32,000 nt of DNA from assembly GCA_021498095.1 (NCBI GenBank), contig JAIZWK010000001.1, forward strand, positions 1,530,001 through 1,562,000, read 5' to 3'. The notes under the pieces are model-generated. The model saw nothing but the letters and a program-made list of their open reading frames with translations. It had not been told where the DNA came from and searched no databases. This DNA is from Candidatus Harpocratesius repetitus (GTDB lineage Archaea; Asgardarchaeota; Lokiarchaeia; Sigyniarchaeales; Promethearchaeaceae). Within the stretch, counting starts at the first letter, position 1. Each line of letters begins with the position of its first letter. Positions 19,150 through 31,870 of this stretch are shown piece after piece. A program made the translations under genes and the position numbers.

Positions 19150-19287
19150 ATCGACTCATAATTAATTTTTCTAAAGTTCATTTCTGCTGACTGAATTATT
19201 ATTTGGATAAATTTGATTAATATCGGAAAATGAAAGATGAAAATGATAATTCTGTCAAAAATAAAGAAGTTGTTAAAACCTCTTAAA
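19150..19287 (-). repeat. 138-bp dispersed intergenic repeat, copy A
   Basis: Ungapped match of 119/138 nt (86%) to the reverse complement of 31733-31870, counted by hand. Confidence 0.9.
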
Positions 19288-20293: not shown

Positions 20294-21370
20294 ATGGGAT
20301 TCAAGTTTATTTCCCAACTCGAGGATATTCCTATGGAAGAGACAGTAAAAAAAATCGAGATATTACTTTATAATTATTTTCAAGCTTGCATTGATATGAT
20401 GGAAGCTGTTTATGTTTTTCATCGTGATGGAGAATTAATTGCAAAAAAATTGTCTGAATCACCTGAAACATTAATATCTGAGGATAATCTCTATAGTGGA
20501 GTTGCTGAAATTGTAGATCAAACTCTCAAACGTATAAAATCTCAATATCCAGGTAGTTTTGGAACAAGTACATTTGAAACAAATGAACATCGATTAGTAT
20601 TTATTGAATGTGGTCAAAATGCCATTATGCTTTCTGTTTTTAAATTAGAGACTCTACTTTCAAAAGTAATACCATATGGTTTTTTAGTTGCTGAAAAAGT
20701 TGCTCGTTTGATAGATGGACCAGAATTAATGGTTGATTTGACAGTTCCAAATTTATTCTTAGGATATGAACTTTCATTCGATCCTTCTGTTGCAAATTAT
20801 CCTTATATTGAATTTAATGTCGATCCCGAGCAAGCTCAGAAAGAAATCCATTTTAAATTATGCGTTATCGGAGAACCTGCTGTAGGAAAAACGACTCTAA
20901 TTTATCAATTTGTTCATGGTAAATTTTTAGAAGATTATAAACCGACCTTAGGAATATCAATAACTAATCAAGTATATAATTTGCAAGGTTTCAAACAAAA
21001 TCAACTAAATTTTATGATTTGGGACGTTGCAGGGCAGAAATTTTTTCAACGTGTTAGAAAATACTATTATCAAGGCGCAAATGTGGCATTTATTTGCTAT
21101 GATGTTACCCGTCGAGAATCATTTGATCGAGTTGAGTTTTGGTATCAAGATATTCGAAGCGTGCTTCCAGGGATTCCATTAGTAATTATAGGGAATAAAA
21201 TTGATCTTTTGGAAGATCGACAAGTCTCTCATATGGAAGGAGAACAATTGGCTCGACGTTTACATTGTTCTTTTATTGAAACAAGTGCTAAGAGTGGTGA
21301 ATATGTAAAAGATGCTTTTTCAATTGTAGGAATTGGTTTGTTTTTCAAATTGTTTACAGCAAAAAGATAA
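20294..21370 (+). CDS. roadblock/LC7 (MglB-like) domain fused to a Rab-like small GTPase
   Basis: N-terminal roadblock-type pattern (VYVFHRDGELIA...FGTSTFETNEHRLVFIECGQNAIMLSVF...AEKVARLI). C-terminal G1 GEPAVGKT, G2 YKPT, G3 WDVAGQ, G4 GNKID and G5 ETSAK; YYYQGA and CYDVT resemble RabF motifs. Confidence 0.88.
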   Translation: MGFKFISQLEDIPMEETVKKIEILLYNYFQACIDMMEAVYVFHRDGELIAKKLSESPETLISEDNLYSGVAEIVDQTLKRIKSQYPGSFGTSTFETNEHRLVFIECGQNAIMLSVFKLETLLSKVIPYGFLVAEKVARLIDGPELMVDLTVPNLFLGYELSFDPSVANYPYIEFNVDPEQAQKEIHFKLCVIGEPAVGKTTLIYQFVHGKFLEDYKPTLGISITNQVYNLQGFKQNQLNFMIWDVAGQKFFQRVRKYYYQGANVAFICYDVTRRESFDRVEFWYQDIRSVLPGIPLVIIGNKIDLLEDRQVSHMEGEQLARRLHCSFIETSAKSGEYVKDAFSIVGIGLFFKLFTAKR

Positions 21371-21441: not shown

Positions 21442-22149
21442 ATGGCAACCGTGGAAGAAATTCTATCTCGGGCAAAAAATGACAACCGCACCGTTTTAAC
21501 TGAATTTGAATCCAAAGAATTATTAAATATAATTGGAATTCCAATCCCTTCTCAAAAACTAGTTCCAGTCTCTGAAGGACTTGAGAAAATATTGGAAGCA
21601 TGCTCTCAAATCGGGTATCCTGTGGTTATGAAATTAATGAGTGATAAAATTGTACACAAATCTGATTCTGGAGCCGTAAAATTAAACATTCAATCAGAAT
21701 CTGATGCAAAATCTGCATTTAACGATTTGATGAGTATAGAATGTAATGATGATCAAAAAGCGATTTCTATTCAACAAATGGCAAAACCCCCAATTGCTGA
21801 AATTATTATTGGCTCACTGCAAGATCCTCAGTTTGGAGCAACTGTTATGTTTGGAATTGGTGGTATTTTAGTAGAAGTAATGAAGGATGTTGCTTTTAGG
21901 ATTGCACCAATTTCAGATTTCGATGCTGATGAGATGATTCATGATATTAAGGGTTTTAAGATTTTGGATGGATATCGTGGCAATCCTCCTGCTGATTTAG
22001 ATGCAATCAAAGATACTTTAAAAAAAGTGGCACAACTTGCTTATGATCATCCTGAAATTGCTGAAATGGATCTAAATCCTTTATTTACATATGCAGATGG
22101 TATTTTGGCGGTTGATGCGCGTATTATTTTAAAATCTACTAAAGTATAA
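21442..22149 (+). CDS. acdB: ADP-forming acetate/acyl-CoA synthetase beta subunit (ATP-grasp)
   Basis: LTEFESKELL, GYPVVMK, HKSDSGAVKLNI, DPQFG, MFGIGG, EVMKDVAF, GYRG and MDLNP...AVDARI. Confidence 0.92.
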   Translation: MATVEEILSRAKNDNRTVLTEFESKELLNIIGIPIPSQKLVPVSEGLEKILEACSQIGYPVVMKLMSDKIVHKSDSGAVKLNIQSESDAKSAFNDLMSIECNDDQKAISIQQMAKPPIAEIIIGSLQDPQFGATVMFGIGGILVEVMKDVAFRIAPISDFDADEMIHDIKGFKILDGYRGNPPADLDAIKDTLKKVAQLAYDHPEIAEMDLNPLFTYADGILAVDARIILKSTKV

Positions 22150-22239: not shown

Positions 22240-25200
22240 ATGGTGAAAAAAGTAAATATGCGAATTAATCTGAAAAATGTTATTTCTATTTTGATTTTAT
22301 TAGCAATTGTTACAATTCAGATTAACATTCTATTCGTTCCAAATTATCTGAGTGAGAACCAAGATACTGGAGAGAGCCCTTTGATTCCGTTCGAATATGA
22401 AAATAAAGAAATTATGAATCCATTATCTTCCGATTATAATAAGAATTTAACTGCTTCAACTAATAATGTAAAAGTTACTCTTCATCAAGCTTATAATTCC
22501 ACTGCTGTTCAATCTTTTGATGAAGTATCTAATACTTTTAATGTTGCAGCTCCAAATGCAACAAATTTTAATGTTTCGTCATCAAATATTGTAATTAATA
22601 ATATTAAATTGAATAATTATACTAAAATAATAGAAGATGTCAATGTTGATTATAAAACTGTTGGAAATTTAGCATACCTTACTTCATTTTCAATTCCTAT
22701 AAGTTGTATGATTTCTAATTTTAGTTTTTATATAAGAGAATATGCTGGTGTAACAGGTGATGTAAATATCGTTCTTTCTCCAGCAAATTCAACTGATCCA
22801 ACAAAACCAAAATTGGATTATAATAAATTAATTGTATTAGATCAATTGACAATTACTGCTAGTAAAATTGGTTGGGTTGTGAAATCAAATATCAATTATT
22901 TTCTGAACAATTCTTTAACTACTAGTAATACTTGGTTTATTGGTGTAAACTTAACATCAGGAAGTAGCATTAATTTGCGTTGGTATTTCAATCCAGACAC
23001 TTCACCTTCAGAAGATAAAACTTTATCTTATGAATGGGCAGGCGGAAAGTGGTCTCTTTTAAAAGATGGAACATATGATCTTGATCTTACTTCTAAAATA
23101 GGACTAGGTTTTTCAAATCCGAATCATACTCCTTCTCAATTTAATTTGCAAATCAATAATTTGACTGTTTATAATAATCTAAATCATCCTGATTCAAATT
23201 CAGGGTTTTGGAACCATACAGGGTTTGGAAGTGATGGAAGTAATTCCATTAGTTATGTTTTTTCTGGAGATTGGTATGATTATTCCTTACAAGTAAATCA
23301 GACAGAAATAAATTATACAAAAACATTTTATACAAATACATCATATACCGTTGAAAGCGGAGTAAATGCATATTGGACATCTCAAGCCAATTTCACTGCG
23401 TTCGACCACCGACTGAATAATAATACCATCAATTTTACCATTCCATTAAGCTGGACTGTAACTTCATTAAAAAGAAATACGACAACAATTTCATATTCCA
23501 CATATACAAATAGTTCTAATAAAATAATAACTGTTTTTGGCTCTGATGCCATCGATGGTAATTGGACTTTGAAATCTCAGTCGTCTAATCTTATTTCTTC
23601 CGTTAAAGTTGGAAGAAGCGGAAAGGAGATAACTTTAGCATATTCTAATGAGACAATCACTTTTAATGCAACTTTCTCCAAGTCTATTAGTGGTACTGTA
23701 AATTTATCGGTATATAACCCTTCAGATCTTGGAAATGAGTTAAATTATACAAAAGAAGTATCAATTAATGATGCTACTTCTGTGGACTTTGGATCATGGA
23801 TTATATCGCAAAATATAACTAATTATGGTGAATTTAGAGTCCAAGTTTACTGGGAAAATTCAACTGATTTAGGGATTCATGATACAACCATTTTCATTGC
23901 AGGTGCAACTGAATATTCTCTTCTTACTACCAATAATACTGAATATCTAAATTCCGGTTCACCATTTAACATATCTCTTTATTACACAGATGTTATGAAA
24001 GGAATAAATGTAACTGGGGCAACATTAGAATATAATCTTAATTTGGGAAATGGCTGGCAAAATGATGCCACTCAATCAAATGCAGATAAAACTTATAATA
24101 TAACTGTTGATCCAACTCAATATTCTGTAGGCTATCATGAAATACCCATTCATCTTAACAAATCCAAGTACATGAATTATTCAATTTCATACGGTTTTTA
24201 TGTTGTAAATAACACTCAACTTTATGAGTATACTCAAGCTAATTCTCTTACTGCCATCCGTGGGCAAAATACAACATATATCTTTAATTTTAATCAGACC
24301 TGGCAAGATACTCCAATCGCTGGTGCAACGATTTCTGTTAACTCTTTACAAACAGGATTAGTTTGGAGTTATTCAGATGATGGAAGTGGAAATTACACAA
24401 TTCGAATTAATTCTTCACAAGTTAATGTAGACACTTATACATGTGATTTTAAGATTTCTAAAACGGACTATAGAACCCAGAATTTCCAATTTGATATTAC
24501 AGTGGTTCAAGCCCAAACTTCGATTGAATTTATTAATCAGACAAATAATATAAAACGAATAAGCGATCTAAATTTTACAACCTATGTAAGAGTTAAAGAT
24601 ACTGATAATAATTGGAATGTGGGAGGAATTACTCCAGGATCTTTAACTGTGTTGAATATTACTGGTACTGAAACCATATGGAATACCGATGAAGCATCAG
24701 ATTGGCGTTTATGGGAAGTGGGTGATGGAATTTATGGAGTTAATATAAGTTTAGGATCAACTGGTGTCAATCGCATTGATTTTGGGAATTATTCGATTAG
24801 ATTGAATATAAGTTATTCTCCAAATTATAATTGGAGTACACTTGATCTATCATTTCATGTTTTAGGTAATTCTACTTCAATTATATTACTTGAAGTAAAC
24901 GATGGCTCTGAGAATTATTACAATGGGAGCGCATTAGCAGAATCACCAGTGAATACTTATCATATTCTTCAAAATCCCACAGGTTCAGTAGAATTTGCAT
25001 TACATTTTGATTATATCGACACTGATAACAGTAATTCTGAAATAAATTTTGCCGGTGTTCGTTATTGGGCTTTATTAAATAGTTCTACTTCATTAGAAAC
25101 AACTACATTTGTTTACTTACAATCGCAATATCATCATGGTCATCTAACTCTACCAGAGTCATTAGCTGTTGGAACATATGAAATCGAAATAATTACAGGA

Positions 25201-28200
25201 TTAAAAAACTATGAGAATGCATCATATACATTTTATTTAATTATCGAACCTATTTCAACTAAGGCTGTTTTAGACAGTATCATTCAAATAGGGAATGATA
25301 ATCATACTAATCCTGAATATAATGCAGGAAATAATACTTATTTTGTTTATGCACAATATGATTTACAGTTGGATTTCTTATTTCAAGATTTAAATAATTC
25401 TGTGAATATTCAAAGTGCTTCTTATGCAAAACTCAATTACAACGGAAATAATCTTACTATAACAGAAACGGATGGGGATGTATATCGCTGGAATATTCAA
25501 TCTTCTTCGCTAATTGTTGGTTCGCATATAATAACTGTCTATTTTGGAAAAACAGATTATGAAAATGCATCCTATTCATTCAATTTAACAATTCTTCTAC
25601 TCCCGACTGATGCTGGAAGAAATCTCGCATTATATCAACCAAGTCATAATGATTCGATGCTTTCTGGAAATCCTTTTATTGTATATCGACCATTTAACTT
25701 ATGGGTTAATTCTTCCTATTTTGATACAAATAATTCCGTTTATTTAGCTGCATCCTATAAAATATTAAACTATAACGGTAAAAATTATACATCGAATTAT
25801 TACCGCGGCAATTTGCATGGGTGGGAAGTACCAGTTGAAGATCTTGTTATTGGTGTCCAAACCATAACTATCTATTTTGGATTGGATAACTACAAAAATG
25901 CTTCTTATAGTTTTGATATAGATTGTCGCTTTAATCCCACTAATGTATCATTTATTGAAATAACTCAACCCGATCATCAACCTGGGATTATGCTTCCATA
26001 TAATTCAACATATCAAAACTACACAGCCTATTCTGCCTATAGTATTACTTTGAATATGTCAACTTATGATACAATTAACAATACATTCCTATCGAGCGCT
26101 ATTGTTCAGCTTTCATTCAATTCACAAATTTATAATCCGAATTTCACTTCAAATGATATGTTTATCTGGGTTTTGCCTGTAATTGATTTAGATTTGGGAA
26201 CATTTAACGTAACTATTACTTTTTCGAAAACTTACTATTTCAATAATACGTATTCGTTCAATATTAGTATATATGATTTACCTACAGATGTGGCGGTTAA
26301 TAGTCAATTTTCTATATCACAACCGGATCACAATTCAACAGTGTTATCCAATGAACCGTTTTTGGTTTATACTGCATATTCACTTGTGATAAACTGTTCT
26401 TATTGGGATACATACAATTCAGAACCTATTTCATTAGCAAATGCTTGGTTATATCTTGATGGTACATTCATATCTACTTCTAACTCATATAATACAACTG
26501 CATATGGATGGATCTTGGATATTTCAGGATTATCACTCGGAGATCATGAAATTTGGTTAAATTTCAGCAAAGATCATTATAGAAATAGTTCAAAAAGTTT
26601 CATAATTTCAGTGGATCATCAAGTAACTACAGCAGAATTGGTTGATATCACTCAAGAAGAGCATAGCAGCGCTACTTTGATAAAGGGTGCAGAACCATTG
26701 AATAATTATACTGTTTATATGAAATATGGTTTAAACCTTTCCCTTTCATTCACAGATCCTACAAATGGTAGCACACCAATTGAAACTGCAACCGTCACAT
26801 TTTGGTTAGATGGTGTGAGTTTTCCTGTTGTATATTCTGGATCTCATTTTCTTGTGAATATTAATGCAAATGATCTTCAAGCGCATCCAGGAGATTTCAT
26901 TCCTGTTTTGATTCACTTTAATGAAACTTTCCACTATAACCAAACTATTGCCTTTAATTTGACAATAGTTGTTCTTCCAACTACTTCGGGTAGCACGTTT
27001 GAAATAACACAGCCACAACATAACAATTCGCAGTTATCTGGAACTCCTTTTGTTGTTTATATCCCTTTTAATCTATATCTTAATTGTTCATATTGGGATA
27101 CTTTTAATAACGAGTCTGTAAACGGAGCATGGGCAATAATTGAATATAATGGAATCAATTATTCCTATTCTGACTATAGTTCTTCTCTATATCGATTTAA
27201 TATAGATTCTTCTTTATTGATTGAAGGAGAAAACCAAATTATTACATTCTATTTTGGTTTAGATAATTATGCGAATTCTTCCTATACAATAACAATATCT
27301 GTGAAAATACTTCCTACTTCTCAAAGTTTAGTTAGTCTAAGGCAACCAAATCATGTGGGATATGAAGATGATGAATTAATTGCAGATCCAACCTTTGGAA
27401 GTTATAGTTTATATCGCGCTTATGATTTCCGATTGGAATTTAGTCTTGTAGATCCAACAAATAGTAACAGTCCAATTTCAACAGCATCTGTTTCTTTCCT
27501 TTACAACGGTGTACCATATAATCTGAGTTATTCATCTGGATCAGGAACATATTTTTATGTTATTCCTGCAGAAAACTTAACTGTTGGGAATGAAATTATT
27601 TCAGTTCACTTCACAGGTGTTGGATTACAAGCACAGACTATTTTATTAAATATATCTGTGTTTAATCTTCCTACAGAATTTCGCAATTTTGAAATTTCTC
27701 AACCAAGTAGTGGAAGACCTGTTGAACTTTCTTCAAATTCAAGTATTGGTTTTGTAATTTATGATTCTTTTGATTTAACACTTAATGGAAGTTTTTATGA
27801 CACAAATAATTCAAAATATCTTGCAAATGCATGGAATCAAGTAATATTTAATAATTCAATATATACAAAAAACTATTTTGCATCAGATAAATATGGTTGG
27901 CTTATTCCAGCAGTTGATTTGATTCCAGGGGTTTATGTGATTGAAATTAAATTTGGGCTTGATACTTATGAAAACGTATCTAAAACATTCAACATTACAA
28001 TAGAAATCCTTGCTACTAGCATTCATTTTAATGAAAATACAAATGATAATGATTTACGACAAGAAGATCGACCGAATTACCTTCTTCATCCTGTAGAATT
28101 TATTGGAGGTGTTTATCATGTTTTTGTGAAATATGATGTAATCATTGATGTAGTTTATTATAATGAAATTGATAATTCTTCTTTGATTTCTGCAGATTAT

Positions 28201-31200
28201 GCATTTTTATCTTATAGAAATTTCAATACTACAGGAGTAGAATTTGAACCCGGCAGTTATCGTTTCACAATTCCAGCATCTGTATTATCTTTAGGATTAT
28301 ATAATGCTACGTTGAATTTCGGGAAATTAACATATGAAAATGCCACCCGTGTGATATATATTCAAGGTCATCTCTTAAGTACGCAATTGCTTGTCAATTC
28401 TCTTGAACAATCTGAACATCAAGGTGTAATTTCACAGAACTTAATAAATTCTTCATCTCATGTCATTTATCTTCCATTTGATACTAGTTTAACAGTAGAG
28501 TTTATAGATTTAAATAATACACTTCCAATAAGTTCAGCAACCGTAGCAGAATTGACATTTAATGGTTCACTTGTAGTATTAGATTCTCAAGCAAATGGAG
28601 TTTATTCATGGTTTATACCAAAATCATTACTTTCAATTGGCTCTATTACAGTTCAAATATCTTTACAATTAGAAGATTATCAATCTCAAGTTTTTATTTG
28701 CTTTTTGAATGTTTCTATCGTAAACATTCAAGGTGAGTTAATTAACTTGCAGCAAGATGATGAAGAACTTACCTTTAATGAAACATCTCAACAATATTCT
28801 GCATTTGCACCTTTTGATATTTTATTGTCATATCGATTTATTGACTCTGTGATTAATTCAACCTTTAATAATGTATCTATGGTAGATCTAACACTTAACG
28901 GGGATCATCACTATAATGCTTTGATAATTTCGGGTAATTTTGTTTTCACGATATCGTCAAGCGATCTTTTACTTGGAACAAATGAAATAATAATTCATTT
29001 TTTTAAATATGGATATGAAAATATCACTGTCTCAATAAATATTAATGTAATTTCAGAATACTCTGTATCTATAACATTATTGAGTAAGCCAACAAGTGTA
29101 ACTCAAGGAGATAAGCTTTCATTGGTTTTCCAAGTTTCTTATTCAATTGGAGATGAAATTTTTCCATTAGAAGGAGAATCGGTAACTCTTCGCGTAGATC
29201 ACCCTGATATTAGCCCAATTACTAATATAACTGATGAAAATGGTAAAGTTTATTTTGAATTCGTTCTTCCAATAGGCGATTATTCTGATTTGAATATATC
29301 AGTAGAGTATAATGGCCAACAATATGGCATTGCTGAAAGTAAAAACTCTATTGAAATTACAGTTGAAGCTCCTCCAGGCATTCCAATTTGGGTTGTCTAT
29401 ATTATCTTAGGATTTGTTGGTTTTATTGCGATTGCTGTTACTGTTCAAAAGAAGGTTATTCAACCACGACGGATGCATTTTACTGATTTGGTGATGTCTT
29501 CCGCTACTATCTTTGAAGATGCAATTAATATTCAACATATTATGGTTATCTACAAAAGCTGGGGGACATCAATCTTTTTCAAGTCATTTGCTGAAGATAC
29601 ATTTGATCCTGACTTGATTAGTGGATTTTTATCGGCCGTCCAATCATTTGGAAAGGAACTTAAATCTCAAAATACACTTAACGAATTATCGTATGGAGAC
29701 AAAATTCTACTCTTTTCAGATGGAGAATTCATTCGTGTAACTTTGGTTTTAAGTAAGACTGCTTCTCCATTTTTAAAACGGAATTTATCAAAATTTGTTA
29801 ATGTTTTTGAAGTTCAGTTCAAAGATCAGTTAGTAAAATGGCATGGACAGCTTAATGTATTCCAAGGTGCTGAAGATTTGGTTGATGAGGTTCTAAAAAC
29901 ATCTGTGATATTACCTCATAGGTTTAATCCAGAAATCAAAAAGCCTAAAGATTTACAACGAGCTTTAACGAAACAAGTTTTATCAATTGCTCAATCTTTA
30001 ATAGGAGAAAACCGCCCATTCTTATTTTTGGCTCAACTCTTGCAACAAGCACTGGATGAAACAGGAAAAGACGCACCTGAAATTATTCTTTCAATTACAG
30101 AATTACTTGATAATAAAATATTAATACCTATCAAGATTGAGCAAATTGAAAGACCAGAATTGACCGAATCACAAAAACAAGAGCTACATGCACGTGTTTG
30201 GGAAATTCCAAATAAAACTAATTTAGAGAAAGAAGAGATTTTTGAACAATTAATCCAACTATCTGAAGCAGAACGTGAGGTTGCATTAAGTTCGTTGTTA
30301 CAGAAAGTAACAATAACTTCTGAATATACCAAAGAAGAATATGAGATTCCTAAATTTACTGATGAAAAAGCTGCCAGAAAGGAAATTAAATCTTTGATTT
30401 CTCAAGCTAAAAAGGCAGCGAAATCACAATTATTTGATGAAGCGTTAAAATTCTATGAAATAGCTGAAATAATTGCAATTCAATGGAATTTCAAAGAAAC
30501 AGTCAAAGAATTAGAAAGTGTAACTTTATCGACTACAGTACTTAAAGAAAACACAATAATGAAAACATCTAAGAAGCGAGCTAAGAAACATGAGAAATCT
30601 AAAGAATATGAACTTGCTCATTCTGAATATCAAAATGCTTTAGATGCTGCTCATAGATTATTCCAATTAGGTTTTCAAGAATATGAAGAAGAGATTAAAT
30701 CTCTCACCCACAAGGTCGTTGAATTAAAGCATGAATGCAAATCTGAACAAAATAATGAAGAGTGTTTAGACGAAAGTATTATGATTAATTCTCGCAAGAA
30801 GCTAATTAAATTCTATAATAAAAATGAACCTAAGTTGACTTATCGCGAAAAAATAGTAACGCTAACACGAATTGCTGTAATTTCAAACTTACTATTTAAA
30901 TCTGGAAATGCTTCTGAAATAAAGAATATACGAACATATCAAAAGAAAATTGAATCCGTGAAAAAATCACTCGCAAAAGAATCTGAAAGTGTTCAAAAAG
31001 AGATCCAAGAAAATAACACTGTTTTACAAGAAATGGCAGAAAACTTAGAAAAATTGATAAAAGAAGCAGAATTGAATGAAAACTGGTTAGAATCTTTATT
31101 ATTATATCAGAAACGTGTTGATATCTCCTATCAGCTTGGAAACATAGATCGCGGTGTCTATTTTATTGGTCAGATTAAGGCAAAATTAGAAAAAGTTCCT

Positions 31201-31335
31201 TATCTATTTGATTTAATTGATGATTATAGCCAAAAACTTTCTATAGCTGAAGAGCAAAATAATCCTGGTGATAAACAGAAATATCATGATTTACTTAAAC
31301 TTTTACATGAAATTATGTTTGAATTTGATTTATAA
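22240..31335 (+). CDS. 3031-aa single-pass surface protein: signal/TM, about 2350-aa beta-rich ectodomain with tandem Ig-like repeats, TM helix, cytoplasmic longin-like + winged-helix-like + TPR/MIT-like region
   Basis: N-terminal hydrophobic ISILILLAIVTIQINILFV; dozens of N-x-S/T sequons only before the TM; TM IPIWVVYIILGFVGFIAIAVTV (29380-29445) followed by QKK; longin-like IMVIYKSWG...DPDLISGFLSAVQSFGKEL...F..F (about 29530-29900); A--A-K---Y--A---Y helical hairpins at about 30373-30672 and 31036-31168. Confidence 0.85.
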   Translation: MVKKVNMRINLKNVISILILLAIVTIQINILFVPNYLSENQDTGESPLIPFEYENKEIMNPLSSDYNKNLTASTNNVKVTLHQAYNSTAVQSFDEVSNTFNVAAPNATNFNVSSSNIVINNIKLNNYTKIIEDVNVDYKTVGNLAYLTSFSIPISCMISNFSFYIREYAGVTGDVNIVLSPANSTDPTKPKLDYNKLIVLDQLTITASKIGWVVKSNINYFLNNSLTTSNTWFIGVNLTSGSSINLRWYFNPDTSPSEDKTLSYEWAGGKWSLLKDGTYDLDLTSKIGLGFSNPNHTPSQFNLQINNLTVYNNLNHPDSNSGFWNHTGFGSDGSNSISYVFSGDWYDYSLQVNQTEINYTKTFYTNTSYTVESGVNAYWTSQANFTAFDHRLNNNTINFTIPLSWTVTSLKRNTTTISYSTYTNSSNKIITVFGSDAIDGNWTLKSQSSNLISSVKVGRSGKEITLAYSNETITFNATFSKSISGTVNLSVYNPSDLGNELNYTKEVSINDATSVDFGSWIISQNITNYGEFRVQVYWENSTDLGIHDTTIFIAGATEYSLLTTNNTEYLNSGSPFNISLYYTDVMKGINVTGATLEYNLNLGNGWQNDATQSNADKTYNITVDPTQYSVGYHEIPIHLNKSKYMNYSISYGFYVVNNTQLYEYTQANSLTAIRGQNTTYIFNFNQTWQDTPIAGATISVNSLQTGLVWSYSDDGSGNYTIRINSSQVNVDTYTCDFKISKTDYRTQNFQFDITVVQAQTSIEFINQTNNIKRISDLNFTTYVRVKDTDNNWNVGGITPGSLTVLNITGTETIWNTDEASDWRLWEVGDGIYGVNISLGSTGVNRIDFGNYSIRLNISYSPNYNWSTLDLSFHVLGNSTSIILLEVNDGSENYYNGSALAESPVNTYHILQNPTGSVEFALHFDYIDTDNSNSEINFAGVRYWALLNSSTSLETTTFVYLQSQYHHGHLTLPESLAVGTYEIEIITGLKNYENASYTFYLIIEPISTKAVLDSIIQIGNDNHTNPEYNAGNNTYFVYAQYDLQLDFLFQDLNNSVNIQSASYAKLNYNGNNLTITETDGDVYRWNIQSSSLIVGSHIITVYFGKTDYENASYSFNLTILLLPTDAGRNLALYQPSHNDSMLSGNPFIVYRPFNLWVNSSYFDTNNSVYLAASYKILNYNGKNYTSNYYRGNLHGWEVPVEDLVIGVQTITIYFGLDNYKNASYSFDIDCRFNPTNVSFIEITQPDHQPGIMLPYNSTYQNYTAYSAYSITLNMSTYDTINNTFLSSAIVQLSFNSQIYNPNFTSNDMFIWVLPVIDLDLGTFNVTITFSKTYYFNNTYSFNISIYDLPTDVAVNSQFSISQPDHNSTVLSNEPFLVYTAYSLVINCSYWDTYNSEPISLANAWLYLDGTFISTSNSYNTTAYGWILDISGLSLGDHEIWLNFSKDHYRNSSKSFIISVDHQVTTAELVDITQEEHSSATLIKGAEPLNNYTVYMKYGLNLSLSFTDPTNGSTPIETATVTFWLDGVSFPVVYSGSHFLVNINANDLQAHPGDFIPVLIHFNETFHYNQTIAFNLTIVVLPTTSGSTFEITQPQHNNSQLSGTPFVVYIPFNLYLNCSYWDTFNNESVNGAWAIIEYNGINYSYSDYSSSLYRFNIDSSLLIEGENQIITFYFGLDNYANSSYTITISVKILPTSQSLVSLRQPNHVGYEDDELIADPTFGSYSLYRAYDFRLEFSLVDPTNSNSPISTASVSFLYNGVPYNLSYSSGSGTYFYVIPAENLTVGNEIISVHFTGVGLQAQTILLNISVFNLPTEFRNFEISQPSSGRPVELSSNSSIGFVIYDSFDLTLNGSFYDTNNSKYLANAWNQVIFNNSIYTKNYFASDKYGWLIPAVDLIPGVYVIEIKFGLDTYENVSKTFNITIEILATSIHFNENTNDNDLRQEDRPNYLLHPVEFIGGVYHVFVKYDVIIDVVYYNEIDNSSLISADYAFLSYRNFNTTGVEFEPGSYRFTIPASVLSLGLYNATLNFGKLTYENATRVIYIQGHLLSTQLLVNSLEQSEHQGVISQNLINSSSHVIYLPFDTSLTVEFIDLNNTLPISSATVAELTFNGSLVVLDSQANGVYSWFIPKSLLSIGSITVQISLQLEDYQSQVFICFLNVSIVNIQGELINLQQDDEELTFNETSQQYSAFAPFDILLSYRFIDSVINSTFNNVSMVDLTLNGDHHYNALIISGNFVFTISSSDLLLGTNEIIIHFFKYGYENITVSININVISEYSVSITLLSKPTSVTQGDKLSLVFQVSYSIGDEIFPLEGESVTLRVDHPDISPITNITDENGKVYFEFVLPIGDYSDLNISVEYNGQQYGIAESKNSIEITVEAPPGIPIWVVYIILGFVGFIAIAVTVQKKVIQPRRMHFTDLVMSSATIFEDAINIQHIMVIYKSWGTSIFFKSFAEDTFDPDLISGFLSAVQSFGKELKSQNTLNELSYGDKILLFSDGEFIRVTLVLSKTASPFLKRNLSKFVNVFEVQFKDQLVKWHGQLNVFQGAEDLVDEVLKTSVILPHRFNPEIKKPKDLQRALTKQVLSIAQSLIGENRPFLFLAQLLQQALDETGKDAPEIILSITELLDNKILIPIKIEQIERPELTESQKQELHARVWEIPNKTNLEKEEIFEQLIQLSEAEREVALSSLLQKVTITSEYTKEEYEIPKFTDEKAARKEIKSLISQAKKAAKSQLFDEALKFYEIAEIIAIQWNFKETVKELESVTLSTTVLKENTIMKTSKKRAKKHEKSKEYELAHSEYQNALDAAHRLFQLGFQEYEEEIKSLTHKVVELKHECKSEQNNEECLDESIMINSRKKLIKFYNKNEPKLTYREKIVTLTRIAVISNLLFKSGNASEIKNIRTYQKKIESVKKSLAKESESVQKEIQENNTVLQEMAENLEKLIKEAELNENWLESLLLYQKRVDISYQLGNIDRGVYFIGQIKAKLEKVPYLFDLIDDYSQKLSIAEEQNNPGDKQKYHDLLKLLHEIMFEFDL
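25261..29064 (+). repeat. about 11 tandem about 110-120-aa protein repeats (Ig-like) within the giant ORF
   Basis: Recurrent pattern I.QPxH...F.VY..F.L...Y.DT.N...I..A....NG......Y.W.I....L..G...I...F....Y.N.S..F.I.V..LPT. The repeats are diverged at the DNA level. Confidence 0.8.
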
Positions 31336-31609: not shown

Positions 31610-31740
31610 AAATGATTTTGAATGATGAAAAGAAGGATAATTGCAAAAAGAAAAAAACAAAAAAGAAAATATTTCAGGATTTCCTGTTGAATTGATAACA
31701 ATTTCTTCTTTAATGGCATTAATTTTAATCTCTTTAAGAG
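31610..31740 (+). pseudogene. possible decayed 3' end of a surface-protein gene (charged linker + ISGFP-led TM, Loki-CTERM/PGF-CTERM-like)
   Basis: NDEKKDN (frame 1), then after a frameshift KEKNKKENISGFPVELITISSLMALILISLR. No intact upstream ORF. Confidence 0.3.
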
Positions 31741-31870
31741 GTTCTAGCAACTTCTTTATTTTTGACAGAATTCCCATTTTAATCTTTCGTTTTCCGACAA
31801 TAATCAAACTTATCCAAGAATTATTTCAGTCGGCAAAAATAAACTTTATAAAATATAATTATGAGTCGAT
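31733..31870 (+). repeat. 138-bp dispersed intergenic repeat, copy B (inverted relative to copy A)
   Basis: 86% identical to the reverse complement of 19150-19287; shared blocks include TTCTTTATTTTTGACAGAATT and AATTATGAGTCGAT. Confidence 0.9.

Follow-up and report, generated by a model that had tools for sequence, protein, structure and literature searches.

What the eukaryote-type parts encoded by Asgard archaea, such as longin and roadblock proteins, Rab/Rag/Arf-like GTPases and ESCRT, are attached to within the cell is barely known, and one locus of Candidatus Harpocratesius repetitus raises the question of whether some of them could be held directly below a surface protein. The locus lies in a window of 32,000 nucleotides (contig JAIZWK010000001.1 of assembly GCA_021498095.1, positions 1,530,001 to 1,562,000 of the forward strand), where an uninterrupted open reading frame (ORF) encodes 3031 residues. 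The product is predicted to be a type I single-pass surface glycoprotein consisting of a distal head, a repeat stalk, one transmembrane helix and a conserved tail of 629 residues. According to the structure models, the tail is built of folds that serve protein interaction and contains no enzyme domain. The reading that we prefer, at a rough probability of 0.4, is that this tail serves as a membrane-fixed docking platform and not as an enzyme: its longin domain would receive a GTPase or another longin or roadblock domain, and its MIT-like bundle would receive a helix of the ESCRT-III type.

The first point to be settled is on which side of the membrane the tail lies. A hydropathy scan detects exactly two hydrophobic segments (Table 1), a layout common to every full-length relative. 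An earlier note, made from this DNA sequence alone, had placed a signal segment at the N-terminus and a transmembrane helix at about residues 2381-2402, and both agree with the scan. The first segment is preceded by a net charge of +4 and followed by one of -5; the second is preceded by -3 and followed by QKKVIQPRR. The dense N-glycosylation sequons that the same note had pointed out are confirmed by counting, with 108 N-x-S/T sequons in the ectodomain compared with 50.4 +/- 6.2 in shuffled sequences. In the tail there are 4, compared with 3.5, so that the enrichment is confined to the outside. Composition differs as well: S, N, T and Y abound in the ectodomain, and L, E and K in the tail. Because the flanking charges, the sequon bias and the contrast in composition agree, and the positive-inside rule is followed, the topology is assigned from the sequence as type I with a cytoplasmic tail; the reversed topology, which the note had considered as the alternative, is contradicted by the same three features. 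The ORF has the limits given in the note and no internal stop; the database annotation of this genome places the start codon six residues further in.

The tail has a mean column identity of 59% over 15 sequences. In the orthologues, including DSAG12_03900 of Promethearchaeum syntrophicum and the counterpart in Lokiarchaeum ossiferum, its identity is 92%, 68% and 33-49%, and in every full-length match it stands behind a large ectodomain and one transmembrane helix. An exhaustive profile-free search with the tail retrieved 1100 representatives at E <= 1e-3. These share it in a nested manner: most match only residues 1-230, many match 1-425 and end there, and the nearest relatives match all 627. 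AlphaFold2 (AF2), run with these alignments, gave confident models of the tail, which (pLDDT 81.2 for the whole; pLDDT 78.9 and pTM 0.71 for residues 1-310) show, in this order, a juxtamembrane helix, the longin domain, two winged-helix units, a helical hairpin, three long helices (350-431) and nine further helices to residue 623. The juxtamembrane helix is continuous with the transmembrane segment and holds the tail at the membrane in the model. The earlier note had considered that the tail might fail to fold as longin, TPR or MIT; the models and the structure searches with them give longin and TPR/MIT-like folds.

Judged from the models, the longin assignment is solid at the fold level. DSSP gives the topology β-β-α-β-β-β-α-α in two AF2 models, with strands at 29-36 and 41-47, a helix at 55-72, strands at 79-83, 86-92 and 96-102, a helix at 108-131 and short helices to 155. 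In Foldseek, AP2 sigma, zeta-COP, Sec22b and VAMP7 were at the top, with probability 1.00, TM-scores to the target of 0.6-0.7 and root-mean-square deviations (rmsd) of about 3 Å (AP2 sigma: E 2.6e-4, 0.63 and 2.9). The VIA structure search, which is independent of Foldseek, returned Sec22b at Z 11.4 (rmsd 3.3, 126 of 128 residues), synbindin at 10.9, Sec22 and the Lokiarchaeota Roadblock-Longin protein 8yqg_B both at 10.6, and Ykt6 at 10.5. Its top ~30 rows are longin domains without exception, and roadblock proteins follow lower down (Z 7.2-7.9). For the NPRL2/NPRL3-type proteins of GATOR1, Foldseek gave E 1.5e-3 (9o5a_H) but TM-scores of 0.27/0.23 and an rmsd of 26 over 335 columns, and VIA gave Z 7.3 with an rmsd of 11.2 (8fw5_B). 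The segment DLISGFLSAVQSFG, in which the earlier note had recognized a longin-like domain, forms helix α1 of the model.

The same whole-domain fold is found in the SNARE longins (Sec22b, Ykt6, VAMP7), TRAPPC1/2/4, the sigma and mu adaptins, zeta-COP and the SRX domain of SR-alpha as well as in 8yqg, with Z 10-11.4 and rmsd about 3 Å over 120-130 residues. As in SNAREs and the signal recognition particle (SRP) receptor, the domain would lie at the cytoplasmic face of a membrane. Unlike the known longins, it has no membership at the sequence level: the Pfam models for longin, sybindin, sedlin and Clat_adaptor_s match neither this protein nor any of 45 family members at E <= 1. It is also fused C-terminal to a transmembrane helix below a giant ectodomain, has the juxtamembrane helix as an N-terminal addition, and carries neither a SNARE motif nor a fused GTPase. 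The most invariant residues of the family are W132, G134, F139, L156-P157-H158 (in TSxILPH), G40 and E122. They include a cluster just after and within the longin core, and these invariant residues may mark a conserved binding site.

The second candidate docking site is the MIT-like three-helix bundle. MIT domains of Vps4/CdvC, MITD1, Vta1, katanin/spastin and calpain-7 bind ESCRT-III, and the bundle shares with them an arrangement of ~70 residues in three helices (rmsd 1.4-1.7 Å, 17-20% identity). In VIA, MITD1 was matched at Z 10.8 (rmsd 1.7, 68 of 73 residues, 19% identity), the MIT domain of VPS4A at 10.6 (rmsd 1.5) and that of Sulfolobus Vps4 at 10.3 (rmsd 1.4, 20% identity); yeast Vps4, SKD1, Vta1 and katanin were also listed. 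When 34 family members were scanned singly, Pfam MIT was the commonest match (14/34; best E 6e-4, below the cut-off), followed by TPR_2 (10/34). A profile of these 34 bundle sequences was compared by hhalign with Vps4 MIT domains gathered from 30 Asgard genomes, which gave a probability of 87.5%, P 3.6e-6 and a score of 33.7 in an alignment of 53 columns spanning helices 1-3. The reversed control scored 16.1 and 20 column shuffles at most 19.6; other helical stretches of the tail reached at most 22 against the MIT profile, which is the control level. A second MIT domain, in a calpain-7-like tandem, was considered and rejected on these values. The family consensus has a pattern in helices 1/2 and in helix 3 that we take to be MIT-like. 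Thus, the bundle is a real three-helix unit of the MIT/TPR class whose nearest profile is Vps4 MIT, and it is not separable from TPR. It differs from known MIT domains in staying below the Pfam gathering score and in lying between other helices instead of at a free terminus, although it is C-terminal in many of the shorter relatives; unlike Vps4 MIT, it has no AAA ATPase attached.

Possible partners for such a bundle are encoded in the genome, which has one canonical MIT domain, in Vps4, and four ESCRT-III (Snf7-family) genes. All four paralogues end in an L-x3-[LI]-x2-L-[KR] helix, presumably MIM1-like. Two of the four genes are divergently transcribed neighbours.

The segment TKQVLSIAQSL...ILIPI, described in the earlier note as winged-helix-like, corresponds to winged helix 1 in the AF2 model (helices 173-185, 195-206 and 210-222, strand 226-228). 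It superposes on winged helices of the RRE type (TbtB, MadB) and of the MetAP2/Ebp1 type (Z 8.8-8.9, rmsd 1.9, 78 residues). ESCRT-II-type tandem winged helices (Vps25/Vps22/Vps36) were not among the listed structural neighbours, in which the winged-helix region was barely sampled. The C-terminal 190 residues are predicted by the model to be TPR-like: of the 15 orthologous tails, 6 are matched by Pfam TPR_2 (best E 3.3e-4) and 4 by TPR_1, and the Foldseek matches include the TPR proteins LGN and Rap (E 1e-3 to 1e-2, low TM-scores). No Pfam TPR match was obtained in the 3031-residue protein itself. The TPR/MIT-like hairpins of the earlier note are borne out in part, as helices are predicted at both places: RAKKHEKSKEYELAHSEYQNA falls in the MIT-like bundle, whereas QAKKAAKSQLFDEALKFYEIA falls in the helical hairpin, which is at control level against MIT.

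The family is widely distributed. The full tail is single-copy in this genome, accompanied by about ten weaker longin paralogues. Of the 61 Asgard genomes sampled, 55 have the cassette of longin domain and winged helix, often in many copies and in ORFs of 700-2000 residues, and the ESM Atlas clusters that contain it are all from Promethearchaeota. These counts, together with the 1100 database representatives, substantiate the remark in the earlier note that longin-tailed membrane proteins are common in Asgard archaea. Published surveys also describe longin domains as very abundant in Asgard genomes (10.1101/2020.10.19.343400; PMC10933270).

On the outer side, the ectodomain consists of a head and a stalk. 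No repeats are contained in the head, in accordance with the non-repetitive N-terminal region of the earlier note. Of all parts of the protein, the head has changed fastest in comparison with the closest relative (identity 56.5%; whole ectodomain, 78%; tail, 92%); relative to P. syntrophicum, its 43% identity is close to the 46% of the tail. Such fast change combined with retention fits an exposed distal tip, and the head may have changed quickly on a conserved scaffold. A lectin-like lead for the head is weak (score 0.78). In the stalk, the motif Y-x-N-x-S/T-x-x-F recurs every ~113-117 residues. Self-BLAST of the protein detected no repeats, and a hidden Markov model (HMM) was needed. Seeded on nine motif-anchored units, it recovered three non-seed units at E 3e-12 to 4e-16, and the divergent units at 558-760 had E 1e-4 and 1.5e-3 before they joined the profile. 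The total is 12 clear and 2-4 divergent units, i.e., 14-16, with which the 15-16 units counted in the earlier note are in agreement; the Ig-like fold that it assigned to them is only probable. By language model, the repeats have archaeal clusters of the Big_3_5/MG4/CarboxypepD_reg kind as neighbours (score 0.91, with 172-183 features in common), Pfam CarboxypepD_reg matches the repeat region at E 0.0058, below its cut-off, and partial homologues are named "Ig-like domain-containing" or "COG1470 family" at NCBI. The number of stalk repeats varies among relatives, and their ectodomains range from ~1,060 to ~2,600 residues. Ig domains typically span about 4 nm; if each unit did so, the stalk would reach ~50-60 nm from the membrane.

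Taken together, the tail may act as a docking platform in the following manner. The longin domain would hold a small GTPase or pair with another longin or roadblock domain, for which TRAPP, Mon1-Ccz1, SR-alpha/SR-beta and the adaptor complexes offer precedents. An amphipathic C-terminal helix of the ESCRT-III type would be the ligand of the MIT-like bundle, and protein-protein scaffolding would fall to the acidic winged helices and to the TPR-like end. In this way the protein could tie a patch of cell surface, engaged in adhesion, cell-cell or protrusion contacts, to the membrane-shaping and switch machinery below. Of the eukaryote-style receptor proposed in the earlier note, the architecture, the predicted folds and the topology are supported; signalling, and recruitment of ESCRT-III or a GTPase by the tail, are hypothetical. 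The more specific version, in which a genuine MIT domain couples the giant adhesin to ESCRT-III and the longin domain couples it to a small GTPase, is improbable in our estimate. If true, it would mean that Lokiarchaeia already have a link from surface receptor to membrane remodelling, which would mark the sites of protrusions, constrictions or vesicles or sort the glycoprotein into them, and which would be an archaeal forerunner of the receptor-coat-ESCRT coupling of eukaryotes.

Several observations weigh against the docking platform. A longin fold is by itself no proof of GTPase binding, and the longins of SNAREs and adaptors bind other partners. Pfam and NCBIfam scans of the whole protein and of the tail gave no match above the cut-off of a model (those to Ribosomal_S15, BAH and GSH-S_ATP were discarded as noise-level), and Pfam MIT scores 16.3 bits here against a cut-off of 30. 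On the same residues of the bundle, SRP68/72, TPR and designed helical proteins score in VIA like the MIT domains (9-10.7 for the TPR and designed proteins), and Z values of 10-11 are within reach of three-helix bundles and repeats by their common arrangement. A profile search of PDB sequences found consensus TPR proteins (about 14 bits per repeat) as well as the Sulfolobus Vps4 MIT domain (16.9 bits). The bundle may be part of a TPR stack of 2.5 repeats and not a free MIT domain; in the AF2 model, flanking helices may stack on it. The wing of the second winged helix has low confidence (pLDDT about 46-50). A complex prediction between tail residues 300-440 (the hairpin and the MIT-like bundle; 15-row alignment) and the last 70 residues of one ESCRT-III paralogue (L007) gave a score of 0.00 with a poorly folded partner, which speaks neither for nor against the platform.

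As the chief alternative, the protein may be a coat or spacer that replaces a missing S-layer, a possibility to be taken seriously but doubtful on balance. The ectodomain would form a glycocalyx and the tail would anchor or cluster it, with a homodimerizing longin domain and TPR-like helices that pack or tie to the cytoskeleton; there would be no GTPase or ESCRT partner and no signalling. Cryo-electron tomography of L. ossiferum showed no ordered S-layer and many complex surface proteins, of which some link protrusions and others sit at sites of high membrane curvature (PMC9834061), a picture that fits the docking platform and the coat alike. The single-copy gene, kept in syntenic order like a housekeeping envelope component, the free variation of stalk length between relatives, and the crystallization of a Lokiarchaeota longin as a dimer (8yqg, according to its entry title) suit a coat. 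On the other hand, a tail of 630 residues and five modules, more conserved than the ectodomain in the comparison with the closest relative, exceeds the needs of anchoring, and its nested modular growth across the family suggests that partner-binding functions were added.

An outside-in receptor is also conceivable: a ligand of the head would alter the longin domain, which would act as platform, guanine nucleotide exchange factor or GTPase-activating protein for the neighbouring roadblock-Rab-like GTPase, a Ras/Rab-family protein with an N-terminal extension that is encoded two genes upstream. Longin and roadblock domains are described as GTPase platforms in TRAPP, Mon1-Ccz1, Ragulator and MglB (PMC3747258), and the GTPase slot is filled in four of six genomes: the present one, that of P. 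syntrophicum and, judged by the best match, G030 and G008; two further genomes are too fragmented to judge. However, the gene is inverted in G030 and G008 and is not in the slot in L. ossiferum and G049, an absence that weighs against the docking platform as well. Because the whole block is syntenic, the adjacency needs no functional link and is weak evidence for a partnership. Each genome yields 26-36 matches to similar GTPases, and the GTPase genes of P. syntrophicum MK-D1 generally lie outside operons with roadblock or longin genes, according to a published survey (PMC10933270). Such a receptor is quite unlikely. A transcription regulator of the ToxR/CadC kind, tethered to the membrane, is hardly credible; its winged helices would bind DNA either in place or once proteolysis had freed the tail. 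The tail does have two predicted units of the winged-helix type, but DNA binding by them is unlikely because both are acidic; moreover, the nearest structures of winged helix 1, the peptide-binding RRE-type and the MetAP2/Ebp1-type, are not DNA binders, and the conserved residues of the tail are mostly hydrophobic.

In its overall plan, the protein resembles eukaryotic single-pass adhesion receptors, which have Ig-type repeats: head, stalk, one transmembrane helix and a non-enzymatic tail, which would work by recruitment, follow each other in both. The likeness is one of layout; the eukaryotic tails are short linear-motif regions, whereas a folded chain of 630 residues with longin, winged-helix and MIT-like units is predicted here. 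Among Asgard proteins, the nearest precedent is a set with a Vps28 C-terminal domain or steadiness box, which are combined with longin, adaptin-appendage, TPR, Ig-like and HTH/PCI domains (Makarova et al., 2024; PMC11188069). These proteins come from the same phylum, join the same longin, TPR, Ig-like and winged-helix-type domains, and are proposed to follow the same logic, with the longin domain for GTPases and the other domains for partners. Neither the Vps28 C-terminal domain nor the steadiness box was detected by Pfam scans of the present protein and the tails, and the available text of PMC11188069 describes no giant ectodomain, transmembrane helix or MIT-like unit. In the Streptomyces conservon (membrane sensor kinase CvnA, roadblock CvnB and GTPase CvnD) and in MglA/MglB, a membrane protein, a platform of the roadblock/longin superfamily and a Ras-like GTPase are likewise proposed to cooperate (PMC4316618). 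There, the platform stands alone as a small protein and a histidine kinase forms the membrane component; in the present case, the platform would be part of a surface glycoprotein, and the GTPase is a candidate by gene position only. A literature search returned no description of the architecture head-stalk-transmembrane helix-longin-MIT-like, and DSAG12_03900 is not mentioned in the papers searched. Each fold is already known, and the predicted new element is their combination in a membrane-anchored giant with an MIT-like unit.

In this family, a large glycosylated surface protein would keep a longin domain right below the plasma membrane, accompanied in the present member by an MIT-like bundle. 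The idea is testable, since the two Lokiarchaeia in culture, P. syntrophicum MK-D1 and L. ossiferum, each have an orthologue. Binding of ESCRT-III or a GTPase by the tail would be the first physical link from the Asgard cell surface to this machinery; without such binding, the family would still seem to make up a major part, so far lacking annotation, of an Asgard envelope that has no S-layer.

Table 1. Features of the giant gene, its neighbourhood and related loci; coordinates refer to the window unless a locus handle is given.
Feature	Residues	Coordinates	Strand	Basis or remark
Whole gene	3031 aa	22240..31335	+	With stop; alternative start Met7 (22258), 3025 aa
Signal peptide or signal anchor	aa 14-32	22279..22335	+	Preceded by MVKKVNMRINLKN, net charge +4
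Non-repetitive head	aa 36-557	22345..23910	+	Conserved in all orthologues, 26-56% identity
Divergent repeats	aa 558-660, 658-760, probably one more up to 883	23911..24888	+	HMM; sub-threshold Pfam CarboxypepD_reg at aa 689-760
Twelve tandem ~113-aa repeats	aa 884-2275	24889..29064	+	HMM; sequon-dense, probably Ig-like (Big_3_5/MG4-like)
Last, membrane-proximal ectodomain unit	aa 2276-2380	29065..29379	+	HMM repeat analysis; distinct
Transmembrane helix	aa 2383-2401	29386..29442	+	Followed by QKKVIQPRR
Juxtamembrane helix	tail 5-28	29458..29529	+	AF2; leads from membrane into longin domain
Longin domain	tail 29-156, aa 2431-2558	29530..29913	+	AF2, DSSP, structure searches; ends near nearly invariant TSxILPH
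Cluster of invariant residues	tail 132-158	about 29839-29919		Just after and within longin core
Winged helix 1	tail 173-228	29962..30129	+	Net charge -3; TbtB 6ec8, Z 8.8, rmsd 1.9, 78 aa
Winged helix 2, topology only	tail 241-301	30166..30348	+	Net charge -7; three helices and low-confidence hairpin
TPR-like helical hairpin	tail 307-346	30364..30483	+	AF2
MIT-like three-helix bundle	tail 363-433, aa 2765-2835	30532..30744	+	AF2, VIA, Pfam, hhalign
C-terminal helical repeat, TPR-like	tail 437-623	30754..31314	+	pLDDT about 90; closest orthologues only
ATP-grasp_5 gene		21442..22149	+	Directly upstream, co-directional, six related genomes; positional link only
ATP-grasp_5 in relatives		L001 7051-7752; L002 6975-7676; L038 7910-8593; L039 7727-8413; L040 11294-11992		Upstream of giant gene
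Ras/Rab-like GTPase	~180-aa N-terminal extension	20294..21370	+	Candidate partner by position only
GTPase in relatives		L038 8735-9826; L039 8490-9665	inverted in two sister-family genomes	Slot between Ca-ATPase and ATP-grasp
ESCRT-III (Snf7-family) genes		L004 1441-2097; L005 1432-1959; L006 1528-2070; L007 1207-1908	+; -; +; -	Same genome
Giant ORF G040:C47		L037 8654-10999, running on		Starts with canonical MIT
ORF with Peptidase_C25 domain	740 aa	1987-4209	+	E 3e-61
138-nt inverted pair		19150-19287 and 31733-31870		86% complementary

The window has a G+C content of ~31% and a gene content typical of Asgard archaea, including a family B DNA polymerase, the Ras/Rab-like GTPase and a P-type Ca-ATPase, and the closest database relatives of the giant protein come from Candidatus Harpocratesius, P. 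syntrophicum and L. ossiferum. Orthologues of the giant gene are found at the syntenic site in the latter two species. The syntenic block runs from a histidine kinase through MoCF, the Ca-ATPase, the GTPase (where present), ATP-grasp_5 and the giant gene towards RNA polymerase. The ATP-grasp_5 protein is stand-alone, has 227-235 residues and is encoded on the same strand as the giant gene in all six genomes examined. Among public RNA runs, none was listed with RNA for the tail DNA.

MIT domains were also met on other large proteins. An ORF of 2927 residues in G040 (G040:C47) was considered as an orthologue and rejected: a canonical MIT domain, which Pfam scores over the cut-off at 30.2 bits, lies at its N-terminus, and it is a different protein. 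Two ORFs of 1044-1060 residues in other Asgard genomes also have MIT matches. Judged from these sequences, it may be more general in Asgard archaea that large proteins other than Vps4 carry MIT domains.

Two further observations concern the rest of the window. Near its beginning, an ORF encodes a protein with a strong Peptidase_C25 (gingipain-type) domain. The 138-nucleotide inverted pair was considered as a bracket of a 12.4-kb block and turned out to be a dispersed repeat instead, with at least 40 copies in the genome at 78-89% identity (194 candidates at first look); in sequence it looks like a miniature inverted-repeat transposable element.

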